From Candidatus Woesearchaeota archaeon (GTDB lineage: Archaea > Nanobdellota > Nanobdellia > Woesearchaeales > 21-14-0-10-32-9): a stretch of 64,000 nt of DNA. Shown here piece by piece: positions 3,411 through 9,990 of this stretch (position 1 is the first letter of the stretch; every line of letters starts with the position of its first letter). The stretch is from the NCBI GenBank assembly GCA_021735165.1, contig JAIPHP010000002.1:5491-69490 (forward strand). Reading direction: 5' to 3'. The translations under genes and the position numbers were made by a program. Under the pieces are notes generated by a model that saw nothing but the letters and a program-made list of their open reading frames with translations, searched no databases and had not been told where the DNA came from.

Positions 3411-3448
3411 TGTCCCATCTCAGTGACCTGTTTTAACTCCACATCGCA
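3411..3448 (+). repeat. Cassette-boundary motif, copy A
   Basis: tctcagtgacctgttttaactccacatcgca matches copy B at 30 of 31 positions. It lies immediately 3' of the Fic gene. Confidence 0.8.
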
Positions 3449-3456
3449 TGTATGTA

Positions 3457-4461
3457 TTAAAGAAATGTGTTCCAGTAATTTTCAACAAATTCATTTGCAC
3501 TAAATTTTACTAGAGCAGAATATCCATCTATACTTGAAGAATTTAAGTCAAGAATATCTGCTTTTGATAATGCATCTAAATATTTTTTTCTGTTCTTTTT
3601 TCGTATGATTAAAGGAGGATAATTATTTTGTAACAAAATTATGTTTGCAAGCAACCTTCCTGTTCTTCCATTACCATCAAAAAAGGGATGTATTTTTTCA
3701 AACTTGTGATGAAATATTGTTGCTAAAACTAAAGGGTGCAATTTATTTTTATGCTCCCTGAGCCATTTTAGAAGAAGAGTCATGTCTGTTTTTACATATT
3801 GTGCCGGACTTGATTTAAATCGAGTTTTGGTAACTCTAATATCTTGTGTTCTATAACCTTTTCGCACATCAATTTTGTCAATCAAAAGCGAATGAACGTC
3901 TTGAATTACGTCATGAGTAAGGACGTTTGGAATTTTTTCATAATACTTAAAAAAAACCACTCTTGTATTTTGTAAATCATATACTTCTCTAAGAGTTCTA
4001 TCTTTAGGAGTTTTTTGATTGATTAGTAAATTTTCTGCTTCCTTTAGAGTTATTGTGTTTCCTTCTAAGGAAGTTGTATTATAAGAAAAAGAAACTACAA
4101 AATCATTAAGCAATTCATCTTTAGAATTAATATCTAATTTTTGAAAAACGTTGTTCCAGTGAAGTTTGCATGCTTCGACAACATTTAATGATTCATCCAA
4201 ATACTGATCTTTTTTTAATTTTTCTTTCTTTATTTTTTCTAAATAATGGTTCACTTCCAAGAATTTATGAATAGTTTTGTAGGTTTTTCTTATTTCTTTT
4301 TGATGAATTTGTGGAAGGAGAGCTAATTTTTCTTTGATTTTTGATGGATTATTTCCTAAGTATGCTATGTCTTTTGTTATTTGTTTTCCATTTTTTGTTA
4401 AAGAAGCTCTAAGATAATAATATTCTTTATTTCCTATGCTTTTTTTATAAATAAATACCAT
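3457..4461 (-). CDS. fic: Fic/DOC-family protein (AMPylase), class II, with an intrinsic inhibitory motif
   Basis: Canonical Fic motif HPFFDGNGRTGR. An upstream TTSLEGN sequence matches the [ST]xxxE[GN] inhibitory helix. Confidence 0.9.
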   Translation of the reverse strand: MVFIYKKSIGNKEYYYLRASLTKNGKQITKDIAYLGNNPSKIKEKLALLPQIHQKEIRKTYKTIHKFLEVNHYLEKIKKEKLKKDQYLDESLNVVEACKLHWNNVFQKLDINSKDELLNDFVVSFSYNTTSLEGNTITLKEAENLLINQKTPKDRTLREVYDLQNTRVVFFKYYEKIPNVLTHDVIQDVHSLLIDKIDVRKGYRTQDIRVTKTRFKSSPAQYVKTDMTLLLKWLREHKNKLHPLVLATIFHHKFEKIHPFFDGNGRTGRLLANIILLQNNYPPLIIRKKNRKKYLDALSKADILDLNSSSIDGYSALVKFSANEFVENYWNTFL

Positions 4462-4495
4462 CTTTAATCAAGTATAATGTCTAAATATATAAATC

Positions 4496-4533
4496 TTACC
4501 CTTTAAATAGACGAATATATAAATAAAGGGTAA
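4496..4533. promoter_or_regulatory. Perfect 10-bp inverted repeat with a TATA-containing loop; putative operator
   Basis: ttacccttta - 18-nt loop (aatagacgaatatataaa) - taaagggtaa. Confidence 0.4.
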
Positions 4534-4563
4534 TTTGGTATTTTTGAATTTAAAAAAATTTAA

Positions 4564-8900: not shown

Positions 8901-9465
8901 ATAGTTCTGCCATTTGTAGCCCAATAAATAGTAAATTATTTTCATTAATGGATTCTTTCATTAAAGGCAAACCTCGCACGAAGACATCGTATTTACGGTC
9001 TCCTGCAGCTTTAGCTATTTCAAGCGTTTGCGACCAATTATTGATTAAAACATTTTCTAAATCAGGATATTCATTTAAGGAGTAATACATTTGATTAAGC
9101 TGTTCCCGTCTTTCTTGTCTAGTTTTTTCATCGATTTGTTTTGGCTTTTGCTCAATGTTTGCTATTCCTTCAATGAGTTCTTTTATCCGGTTCTTTTCTT
9201 GTTTATCATATTTACTGGGTTCATTTACAACTTTTTCTAGGTCTTTCATTAAAGCTTGCAAATATGTGTAAATCTTGTCATAGTGATGTATATTATTTTT
9301 ATGAAACTCATTAATATCTTGAATTACCAGAACATCAATTTCCTCCAATCTTAAAATTTTTTTCTTATCAAAATCAGAAATGTTTAAACCAGCTTCGGCT
9401 AATTGATTCAAATGCTTAACCAATCTAGCATTTAATTGCTTTGGTGGTGTTTTGAATATAGACAT
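5953..9465 (-). CDS. Giant tandem-repeat protein (1170 aa) of unknown function, with a possible GNAT-like C-terminal region
   Basis: At least 14 tandem ~33-aa repeats of consensus ILNEKTLPxxVxLVKxxGDQ (HEAT/ARM-like helical repeats). The C-terminal stretch VCVAIDD...LMIILDEEQNACGGVIYRT resembles a GNAT core. Confidence 0.7.
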   Translation of the reverse strand: MSIFKTPPKQLNARLVKHLNQLAEAGLNISDFDKKKILRLEEIDVLVIQDINEFHKNNIHHYDKIYTYLQALMKDLEKVVNEPSKYDKQEKNRIKELIEGIANIEQKPKQIDEKTRQERREQLNQMYYSLNEYPDLENVLINNWSQTLEIAKAAGDRKYDVFVRGLPLMKESINENNLLFIGLQMAELSKSLWIHSHVLEFYLPDIREILNEKTLPYIVELVKALGVDQTESVFKHYLPELVDILNENTLPDMVKLVKSSGDQAGEVISFCSYQIENILNEKTFPDIIKIVKAAGDYRLLVLEKGLSKIRDILNENNLLSIGLQLVKIAKVSGDQAESVLKSFYYVKFKINQNNVLSIGLQLSELFKAEGELSKHVLMFGFREIKNIINENNILSIGLSLAELIKYLKFNSINFLKYWGLHKIKDILNEKKLFYLAEISKAAGDEKNGFFFYGLLEIKDVLTEKTLAYLVEIAKVIRSETHSFFNDGLLEIKPALNEKTLPYLVEMVKLTGDQTNHVFKHGLSSIKEIINEKTLPHILQIVKASKEHTKVVFCEGLPTIKYMINEENLPKITEYFIHILQKTKGAEWENFSKFELLLPYFNRFKILTFPLLIIPTVESQGPASFICIECYSGIAKYEGVYNEKDLELLVWITSKKQRKAPDILHNLILEGLKQNIIQKPISHDAEIIKQFLENSPAYLLEIYTEFRNIYIGTHEDKHIHYEKLFKDVKQLKKEILDGNLTKDYDENILLGTLYSVFAPEVTVDRQQYKRAIQNRQDRQSDIPGELNKLSGLTVRISKGGFVLKEEVNTQSWNNLVEAVTEINQKPIHIDPAETGMHILTDFLHGDLRNKQKEYLKYIYSYNIQLGNQLPSFSSEHETLMKYKEFIGDRLRNDLILSLLSKAQEKYKNEFLVLTNTNKDYRQFAKTLFGIWKSNMNNKENKIIEIINSKGFNIQEINWPENIDVDQINQFLIQNSSNIIDKSLVQQIFNQLYGEQYENMQKEMTKFEFKKEGRSLTGTPFKFILTKHKMHSVAMFNFGVCVAIDDKLWNQPDMWLMIILDEEQNACGGVIYRTIQEQGNTYLIASIQPSSSILASVSPDNLYKKIIQYSKTMVKKLGYTSLLIPTSSTIHSNRGSIQELINAQQYPQITLKQEYAFSYSPYHYTYQQFYIV

Positions 9466-9654
9466 AATTCATTTTTAGCCTGAAGAATATTTAAATATTG
9501 CTTTTAAATTTGAAAAATACTTTAAATTATGCCAAAATGGTATGATAGACGCAGAGTTCATTATTCATGTTTCAACAATTTGCAGTAACATCTGCAACAC
9601 TTAACATCATAATTTTTAGAAAGAATTATATAATCTCTTAGCTAACAGCGTAAT

Positions 9655-9906
9655 ATGAGCTCAATCGATAATACCTGCAACGAAAAAGAAGAAACAGAAG
9701 ACGAATTAAAAATAATGAATGCAGAAGCTAGAAAACGTATAAAAAATGGTTTTTTTCATGAAACTTATGGAAATTTTCTTTCTAAGGATAATACAGAAAA
9801 GAAAAAAGGCGGCGTTTTAAATCCTGTCGGTGTATATGAAAAAAACGGGAAAAAATATACTAAAGTAATAGGCGGTCCAGATAAGCCATATAAAAAAATA
9901 GGTTAA
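9655..9906 (+). CDS. Small hypothetical basic protein
   Basis: 83-aa ORF preceded by TATA-like sequences; no recognisable motif. Confidence 0.3.
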   Translation: MSSIDNTCNEKEETEDELKIMNAEARKRIKNGFFHETYGNFLSKDNTEKKKGGVLNPVGVYEKNGKKYTKVIGGPDKPYKKIG

Positions 9907-9944
9907 TTCTTTGTGATTTAATAGAAATAATTTTTTCATTCACA

Positions 9945-9990
9945 GTTCCTTTGTTGCGACCCGTTTTAACTTGCCATCGCAGAGCCCATC
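9945..9990 (+). repeat. Cassette-boundary motif, copy D
   Basis: gttcctttgttgcgacccgttttaacttgccatcgcagagcccatc carries an internal tgcga...tcgca inverted pair. Confidence 0.7.

Follow-up and report, generated by a model that had tools for sequence, protein, structure and literature searches.

A tRNA-anchored tandem array of small gene cassettes in a Woesearchaeota genome, probably built by site-specific recombination

The 64,000-nt stretch of contig JAIPHP010000002.1 from a Candidatus Woesearchaeota archaeon (the window, with positions counted from its first letter) contains four copies of a repeat of ~55 nt downstream of a tRNA-Ala(GGC) gene. The region from 2251 to 9988 is read here as a tandem cassette array that arose as site-specific recombination acted repeatedly on the 3' end of this tRNA gene, in which small cassettes without an integrase of their own would be mobilised in trans. 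A probability of about 0.6 is assigned to this reading. Judged from the sequence, the tRNA-Ala(GGC) gene is the apparent anchor of the array and not a bystander, because the last 11 nt of the repeat are those of its 3' end. An earlier reading of the letters alone (the sequence-only reading) had placed two tRNA-Ala genes ahead of the array. Both are real, tRNA-Ala(CGC) being found by ARAGORN and tRNA-Ala(GGC) by Rfam, and the shared 11 nt had been overlooked.

The repeat lies on the + strand (copies A to D, Table 1) and consists of an arm of ~40 nt followed by an 11-nt core, CGCAGAGTCCA. The blocks of the arm are, in order, (TT)CACTGTCCC, 6 nt, GTGACCTGT, 4-5 nt, CTC and 5 nt, after which the core begins. 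There are no other copies in the 64 kb. With a profile of the four copies, nhmmer returns only 3407-3461, 4619-4674, 5874-5931 and 9940-9994, all on the + strand, with E-values from 3e-11 to 2e-13 and a runner-up at 2.2. For the 29-nt consensus of the motif with up to three mismatches, shuffled sequences give an expected count of 0.00. The profile thus agrees with the sequence-only reading, which had described four copies in one orientation, unique in the 64 kb and placed at gene boundaries. All copies are indeed intergenic, and a recount of copies A and B, said to match at 30 of 31 core positions, gives one difference in 31. The length of ~45 nt proposed at the time was too short for a repeat that is real, starts at (TT)CACTGTCCC and spans ~55 nt.

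The four copies are not equally well preserved. Copy B has an intact core, and copy D, with its variant core, is the last recognisable junction of the array. The core of copy A lacks its final 7 nt (CGCA is followed by tgtatg), and the break lies 8 nt ahead of the stop codon of the neighbouring Fic gene. The core of copy C is degenerate and one base longer. Together with its 31-nt left flank (5843-5873), copy C is homologous to the mid-array copy of a related locus, L044. A core-like 11-mer without an arm at 9550-9560 is possibly a decayed junction that divides the third cassette in two. The GC content is ~30% across the window, and a compositional island is not apparent.

The core corresponds exactly to the final 11 nt of tRNA-Ala(GGC) at 2251-2261, comprising CGC of the T-stem, AGAGTCC of the acceptor stem and A73 (tRNA positions 63-73). 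With up to one mismatch, this 11-mer occurs at four sites in the 64 kb (2251, 4657, 9550 and 9978), all on the + strand, where 0.15 are expected. The terminal 11-mers of the other six tRNAs in the window have no comparable copies nearby. The tRNA end at 2251-2261 is proposed as the attB/attL anchor of the array. It is easily overlooked. The intron-bearing tRNA genes at 2130-2261, 38204-38324, 42055-42163 and 43084-43189 are found by Rfam and missed by ARAGORN in bacterial mode, which reports only tRNA-Ala(CGC) near the array. Rfam searches of the region, at the gathering threshold and at E<=10, returned tRNAs and no other family.

The corresponding locus was compared among 38 loci around homologues of the glutamyl-tRNA synthetase GluRS, all from metagenome-assembled genomes of Woesearchaeota/Nanoarchaeota. 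These relatives, along with the introns in several tRNAs, mark the window as chromosomal DNA of a DPANN archaeon. The protein collection contained no strain of the same species for a presence/absence comparison, the closest GluRS being 74% identical. The ancestral order in the clade is GluRS, tRNA-Ala(GGC), sometimes tRNA-Ala(CGC), a HAD hydrolase and tRNA-Met. Empty sites are found in L002, L003 and L011, with 45-90 nt between the last tRNA-Ala gene and the HAD gene, and KsgA directly follows tRNA-Ala(GGC) in L040. In other relatives, the distance from tRNA-Ala(GGC) to the HAD gene is 0.9 kb (L019), 1.3 kb (L004), 2.9 kb (L007), 3.4 kb (L006) or 8.4 kb (L001). This extra DNA begins exactly at the 3' end of the tRNA and has further copies of the 11-mer at its bounds. 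The pattern CGCA[GA]AG[TC]CCA occurs 23 times in the window and 39 related loci (653 kb), the expectation from composition being ~0.3. Eleven of these occurrences lie within tRNA-Ala(GGC) genes and 12 are extra. All 23 have the orientation of the tRNA, and on contigs that include the tRNA the extra ones lie within a few kb downstream of it. In L001, L006, L007, L019 and L054, too, an intact tRNA is accompanied by a direct repeat of its 3' segment. The inserted genes of the relatives are ordinary and occur singly, encoding an MBL-fold hydrolase, a thymidylate synthase, an HD-domain protein, an alpha/beta hydrolase, a phosphoribosyltransferase and an AspRS-like paralogue.

The complete motif of arm and core recurs in three further genomes with different cargo. 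L001 has three copies downstream of tRNA-Ala(GGC), in tRNA orientation and with unrelated cargo. The arm of one of them (copy 4) is identical to that of window copy A at 32/32 positions, although the GluRS proteins are only 74% identical. The second genome is represented by L044 and L039, contigs from a single metagenome whose overlap falls within a motif copy. Together they have four copies, which separate MNT-HEPN, Fic, a CN-hydrolase, an unassigned open reading frame (ORF) and a NicO/HypA/HypC segment. In the third, L054, a single contig carries, in this order, GluRS, tRNA-Ala(GGC) with its core, 8.4 kb of glycosyltransferase/IucA genes, an arm with core and MNT-HEPN.

L044 and L054 share modules with the window. 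The order A-Fic-B-MNT/HEPN-C of the window is permuted to MNT/HEPN-m1-Fic-mid in L044, with nucleotide identities of 83% for the Fic block and 89% for the MNT-HEPN block, and the ends of the blocks lie at most 31 nt from motif copies. The homologue of the window Fic protein within the L044 array is 87% identical, and the MNT-HEPN genes have 88-89% nucleotide identity to the modules of L054 and L044. Between the window and L054, the MNT-HEPN DNA is 88.4% identical over 1.1 kb, whereas GluRS and tRNA on the same contigs are 71.2% identical over 1.3 kb. This is the reverse of what vertical descent would give, and the sequence comparison therefore points to an exchange of the MNT-HEPN module between lineages. 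The sequence-only reading had suggested comparing cassette content among relatives; content and order both differ. Within the 64 kb the copies are confined to the array, and its gene order varies among relatives, so that neither a generic terminator spread over the genome nor an invariant order is seen.

When genome and metagenome collections were scanned exactly for a pattern modelled on the window copies, no match was returned, nor was the window recovered. A looser pattern found one metagenome contig, L039. A Logan contig from an independent assembly (L043, SRR12088349, 6715 nt) reproduces the island from ~130 nt past copy D to inside copy A, where the contig ends. This end is most likely an assembly break induced by the repeat and not evidence of polymorphism.

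The position of the crossover can be narrowed down by comparing flanks. Sites with a common right flank part just 5' of CGC, as in the pairs L001 copy 4/L005 tRNA and L001 tRNA/L001 copy 3. For the former, the core and 41 nt to its right are alike (92% over 52 nt), and leftward there is no similarity. Sites with a common left flank part just 3' of the core. This is the case for L054 and the L039/L044 copy m3, which are alike in 70 nt of left flank, arm and core and diverge 1-2 bases past the core. These breaks at the core edges fit a crossover within the 11-nt core, as far as aligned sequences can indicate it. All 12 copies of arm and core share one orientation, which would be expected of an asymmetric crossover site. 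Additional inverted copies of the arm exist. They follow the tRNA end in L001 and L042, and L001 copy 3 has the layout arm-core-inverted arm, which resembles an attP with symmetric binding sites, a likeness drawn from the sequence of the site.

In the proposed mechanism, the motif would serve as a recombination site carried by the cassette, and the enzyme acting on it would be a recombinase, most likely of the tyrosine type, whose gene lies elsewhere. The arm and core of a circular cassette would pair either with the core of the tRNA or with one that a previous insertion had left behind. Crossover inside the 11 nt would regenerate an intact tRNA, and each event would leave arm and core at the distal end of the new cassette. 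Repeated insertion would stack cassettes in one orientation, and excision followed by re-insertion would reorder them. The enzyme, the circular intermediate and any present activity of the system are postulated. Uniform orientation, breaks at the core edges and empty sites are what serial site-specific recombination at a tRNA 3' end predicts. Exchange between the 50-nt repeats by homologous recombination could contribute to the shuffling.

Several observations weigh against this reading, above all the outcome of the search for a recombinase. Pfam searches detected neither PF00589 nor another recombinase among the window ORFs scanned (most of those of at least 120 aa), in agreement with the sequence-only reading, which had seen no integrase in the window. 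The same holds for the L001 ORFs scanned, which extend over ~20 kb of that locus, for the segments inserted in L006, L007, L008, L019 and L044, and for the genes called on L054. The unassigned ORF209, ORF363 and giant protein gave negative results in PHROGs and PDB searches, and inspection of ORF363 by eye did not reveal an RHRY-type residue pattern. Scans of viral contigs for the arm/core pattern yielded no free element bearing an attP. The arm is present in only four genomes, and excision is not directly evidenced. The left edges of the homology blocks are fuzzy, lying 68-172 nt from the core, and the window cassettes are without an inverted arm. The first arm copy of the window (A) is located past tRNA-Ala(CGC), a gene of the ancestral right flank in relatives. 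Either copy A closes the most recent unit, made up of ORF209 and tRNA-Ala(CGC), or a rearrangement of the locus has taken place. Finally, copies A and C are damaged, and for this reason the array of the window may be a fossil that is no longer active.

Of the competing explanations, the one that fares best takes the segments as decayed stumps of larger elements or proviruses that encoded an integrase and inserted at tRNA-Ala(GGC), the motifs being attR scars, with no mobilisation in trans. Integrated elements commonly leave fragments of tRNA genes behind in Archaea (PMC9897764), and the location of the core at the tRNA 3' end and the damage to copies A and C would suit such an origin. None of the more than 15 segments, from the four arm-bearing genomes and four lineages with extra cores without arms, retains an integrase or a virus or plasmid hallmark. 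The segments are mostly 0.8-4 kb long, with 1-2 ordinary genes. Moreover, the same modules are reordered in another genome with intact sites between them, and conservation of the arm far exceeds that of housekeeping genes. Cassettes mobilised in trans are favoured over stumps because these segments are small and without mobility genes, and an origin from stumps is considered unlikely.

A second alternative dispenses with a dedicated recombinase altogether: ~55-nt repeats derived from tRNA 3' fragments would feed homologous recombination or unequal crossing-over, together with DNA uptake anchored by homology. Direct repeats of ~50 nt with 80-100% identity can support exchange of the RecA/RadA type, and the permutation between the window and L044 is topologically reachable by excision and re-insertion between direct repeats. 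Such exchange leaves unexplained the independent 11-nt duplications with different arms in L004, L006, L007 and L019, the breaks that coincide with the edges of the 11-nt core, and the inverted arms around the core, which makes it a rather improbable account of the array.

The inverted arms also invite a comparison with non-autonomous transposons, in which arm and inverted arm would be terminal inverted repeats of ~32 bp and the 11-mer a target duplication at the tRNA end. Two L001 segments are bounded by inverted arms and 11-bp direct repeats, and sequence resembling an inverted arm lies beside the core in L042 and in the mid-array copy of L044. The cassettes of the window have none, however, and where inverted repeats exist they are placed asymmetrically to the 11-mer (1 nt versus 5 nt). 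All insertions have one orientation, the tRNA core is the only target seen, and no transposase was found among the window and L001 ORFs scanned. Transposition is judged very unlikely.

A possible source of the arm emerged from tRNA introns of relatives. The tRNA-Ala(GGC) genes of L006 (9907-9741, - strand) and L019 (2193-1909, - strand) contain an intron in the T-loop (59/60) of 76 and ~210 nt, respectively, which in L006 is additional to the canonical 37/38 intron. Both introns fold in a manner resembling a bulge-helix-bulge, with a UUC(A)/(U)GAA helix and a 3-nt AGU bulge, and both have GTGACC 16-19 nt ahead of the 3' exon, as in the motif. The 12-mer TTTGTTGTGACC near the end of the L019 intron is found elsewhere, within 775 kb, only in window copy C and its L043 duplicate, and in copy C its distance to the core is equivalent to that in L019. 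On this evidence, the motif looks like the 3' part of a T-loop intron joined to the 3' exon of tRNA-Ala(GGC), minus two bases (T-CGC versus TCCCGC). An arm derived from a T-loop intron would explain why identity to the tRNA of the window, which has no T-loop intron, is limited to 11 nt of the ~55-nt site. A link between the integration of elements and intron gain in tRNAs has been proposed previously (PMC3293823).

As a separate observation on these introns, near-identical 17-mers, CAACGGTTTCG(C/T)CCGTT, open introns at different positions of tRNA-Ala, namely in the T-loop in L019 (~2134) and in the D-loop in L023 (~4107). The canonical intron of tRNA-Ala(GGC) in the window begins with ACAACGG. 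The shared 17-mers hint at mobile or shared intron sequence.

The intron resemblance, including the fold of the L006 and L019 introns, also constitutes the case for a motif that functions at the RNA level. It might then terminate transcripts or direct their 3' processing, as the sequence-only reading had entertained for a signal specific to the island, act as a bulge-helix-bulge splice substrate or supply tRNA-Ala with an alternative 3' exon. The copies lack the TGAA-NNN-CCCGC for T-arm pairing and have T-CGCAGAGTCCA instead of TCCCGCAGAGTCCA, which makes the pair G53:C61 impossible. There is no significant fold and no Rfam match, and the four copies in 64 kb keep the + orientation with neighbouring genes on either strand, so that such a role is hardly credible. 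Nor is the motif a generic intrinsic terminator, which would have refuted the sequence-only reading: the 64 kb contain just four copies, which are confined to the array, lie on the + strand whatever the strand of the gene and have no stable stem.

A true integron, or a cluster of attC sites lacking integron-integrases (CALIN), served by IntI would share the array layout and the toxin-antitoxin-type cargo, and integrons and attC clusters without IntI have been reported in Archaea, including DPANN (PMC9668308). The attC-like folding suggested by the sequence-only reading did not materialise, as none of the four copies folds better than shuffled sequences on either strand (z -1.5 to +0.7), nor does the full palindromic site of L001 copy 3 as single-stranded DNA (z -0.33). 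An alignment of 11 copies revealed no R''/R' boxes, a dedicated attC covariance model not having been run. No IntI was found, ORFs occur on both strands, and the anchor is a tRNA gene beside GluRS and not an attI next to intI, which leaves this explanation highly improbable. Of the integron-like or serially integrated att-type array that had been proposed, the array of cassettes bounded by att sites stands. The attC and integron part in the strict sense does not, given the missing hairpin, the missing IntI and the ORFs on both strands.

The features of the window array are listed in Table 1.

Table 1. The tRNA anchor, motif copies and cassette genes in the window.
Feature	Position	Strand	Assignment and remarks
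tRNA-Ala(GGC)	2130-2261	+	Rfam RF00005, 52.4 bits; 60-nt canonical intron
First inserted segment	2262-3407		ORF209, tRNA-Ala(CGC) and 150-nt spacer
ORF209	2473-3102	-	No family match
tRNA-Ala(CGC)	3184-3257	+	ARAGORN
Motif copy A	3408-3448	+	Arm CACTGTCCC-N6-GTGACCTGT-N4-CTC and first 4 nt of the core (CGCA)
Fic-domain protein, 334 aa	3457-4461	-	Pfam PF02661, 2e-21; PADLOC SoFic/PDC-S04
Motif copy B	4620-4667	+	Arm and intact core at 4657-4667
MNT and HEPN, toxin-antitoxin-type pair	MNT 4777-5352, HEPN 5321-5842	+	Pfam NTP_transf_2/Polbeta and HEPN; PADLOC PDC-M05A/B
Motif copy C	5874-5924	+	Arm and degenerate core CGTGTGAGTCCA at 5913-5924
Giant protein, 1170 aa	5953-9465	-	34-aa (102-nt) repeats
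Core-like 11-mer CGCAGAGTTCA, no arm	9550-9560	+	1 mismatch; between the start of the giant gene and ORF83
ORF83, small ORF of 83 aa	9655-9906	+	No family
Motif copy D	9940-9988	+	Arm and core variant CGCAGAGCCCA at 9978-9988

The Fic and giant genes are encoded on the - strand, and MNT, HEPN and ORF83 on the + strand, with the motif always on +. The cargo named by the sequence-only reading (Fic, MNT-HEPN and a giant repeat protein) is confirmed by Pfam for the first two and by the 102-nt repeats for the third. The giant protein has no Pfam or PADLOC match and a negligible PHROGs match, and no homologue of ORF209 is present in the 38 related loci. The description as a defence or accessory island holds insofar as Fic and MNT/HEPN match candidate-defence families of PADLOC; "defence" is too narrow a term, because the cargo of relatives is mostly metabolic. 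Nor is Fic or MNT cargo always borne by arrays, since the contexts of these genes in L047, L049-L053 and L055 have neither motif nor core. In L003, just 10 nt separate the two tRNA-Ala genes. The island has no recognisable right boundary: related loci contain no homologue of the array's intergenic flanks, and the HAD gene and tRNA-Met, the right-hand neighbours in relatives, are both absent from the window.

In function and layout, the array is closest to tRNA-targeted integration combined with the tandem accretion of units without an integrase; it is integron-like in layout and not an integron. Integrative elements and islands targeted to tRNA genes by tyrosine integrases, such as the pNOB8 and SSV classes, PYG1 of Pyrococcus yayanosii with its 44-bp repeats, and the sublocation classes of Williams 2002, likewise feature a direct repeat of the tRNA 3' end, an intact tRNA, empty sites and variable cargo (PMC9897764). 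In or near the arrays described here no integrase was found, whereas classical integrative elements are defined in part by an integrase gene of their own, usually beside an att site. The units of the arrays comprise 1-2 genes, many in tandem, whereas tRNA-targeted elements measure 9-23 kb. In addition, just 11 nt of the ~55-nt site are identical to the tRNA, and what precedes them is not tRNA exon sequence.

Tandem units bounded by att sites, without recombination genes and with variable content and order, are also a feature of the cis-mobilisable elements (CIMEs) of streptococcal integrative and conjugative elements and of the tycheposon and satellite islands of Prochlorococcus. In both systems, cargo flanked by att sites is stacked head to tail at a tRNA gene, forming a hypervariable island in a streamlined genome. 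For CIMEs and tycheposons, helper elements bearing an integrase have been identified in the same genomes or populations. The arrays reported here differ in that no helper has been identified, the host is a DPANN archaeon, and a tRNA intron and exon seem to have given rise to the site.

Integrons and CALINs share with these arrays a single insertion point, serial small cassettes that end in a conserved site, toxin-antitoxin modules and the frequent absence of an integrase. The sites described here are unfolded, without RYYYAAC/GTTRRRY boxes or IntI, the ORF strands are mixed, and insertion takes place at a tRNA 3' end. By contrast, the integrons described from Archaea retain IntI and an attC fold like that of bacteria (PMC9668308). 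Another parallel is the tRNA-Thr of Caldiarchaeum reported by Sugahara et al. 2012, where integration at a tRNA is tied to intron gain and scattered tRNA fragments (PMC3293823). That case involves an insertion sequence of 1.8 kb that encodes a recombinase, and a 5' fragment (PMC3293823), whereas the present arrays have 3' fragments at the cassette bounds and no recombinase.

The literature searched contained no description of such arrays in DPANN archaea. Their genomes are tiny, they rely on hosts, and the ways in which they obtain accessory genes and exchange them are poorly understood. Gathering defence-type, metabolic and cell-surface genes at one locus anchored to a tRNA would be a concrete route of gene flow in DPANN, and one easy to search for with the 11-mer and the arm. 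As no integrase is linked to the arrays, it may be asked which enzyme acts on the site. Given the homology of the arm to a T-loop intron of the target tRNA, an old question becomes directly testable, namely whether integrating elements create tRNA introns or introns shape attachment sites. As a wider and tentative proposal, which is at present doubtful, Woesearchaeota might possess a capture platform of their own, integron-like and unrelated to IntI/attC. In such a platform, the tRNA-Ala(GGC) 3' end would act as attI and a ~55-nt site derived from intron and exon would bound cassettes of a single or few genes. An unlinked recombinase, supplied by the host, a helper or a partner, would insert, excise and reshuffle these cassettes and move them between lineages. 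Conversely, deletions within such arrays could create the non-canonical T-loop introns of relatives.

Some further observations concern the relatives and the surroundings of the motif. The first inserted segment of the L001 array contains a paralogue of class-II aminoacyl-tRNA synthetases of the Asp/Asn/Lys type (7603-8919), which is only ~24% identical to the enzyme encoded in the window at 55697-57202. In L004 (9830-9617, - strand), 4.1 tandem units of 52 nt with 98% identity extend from the 3' end of tRNA-Ala(GGC). Each unit has the core CGCAAAGTCCA followed by the complementary GGACTT, giving an AAGTCC-ATTA-GGACTT hairpin. A flank family, CTTAaCC.TTTTGGCATA.TT, occurs just after the core in L006 (~9740), L054 (~1276) and L001 (~4254), upstream of a gene on the + strand, and represents either a shared left end of cassettes or a promoter.

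The reverse complements of 3408-3460, 4620-4672 and 9940-9992 encode a similar short peptide, ..GLCD[GV]E.KQVT.. followed by a stop. The motif as a C-terminal coding remnant of a minus-strand gene was rejected and the peptide regarded as a probable coincidence, as there is no upstream ORF and this C-terminus occurs nowhere else in the window. The variability of motif columns by codon position (0.69/0.61/0.72) has no 3-base periodicity in 10 of the 11 copies, copy C being omitted for its indel. Derivation of the motif from tRNA-Met, the conserved downstream tRNA of relatives, was rejected as well for want of similarity.

A different repeat family of ~100 nt with multiple hairpins, starting with ...ATGAAAATCCCTGCTCCGAGTC, is present in the window at 10050-10159 and 32638-32734 (both + strand). 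In relatives, it occurs in L054 (11045-11146), L047 (11573-11470, - strand) and L024 (5776-5699, - strand). One copy lies 60 nt past motif D, and another right after HEPN in L054. The family has no Rfam match and generally lies directly 3' of a gene on the same strand (4/5 copies checked). Its fold is more stable than that of shuffled sequences (z -3.5 and -3.9), and the hairpins are preserved despite sequence change.

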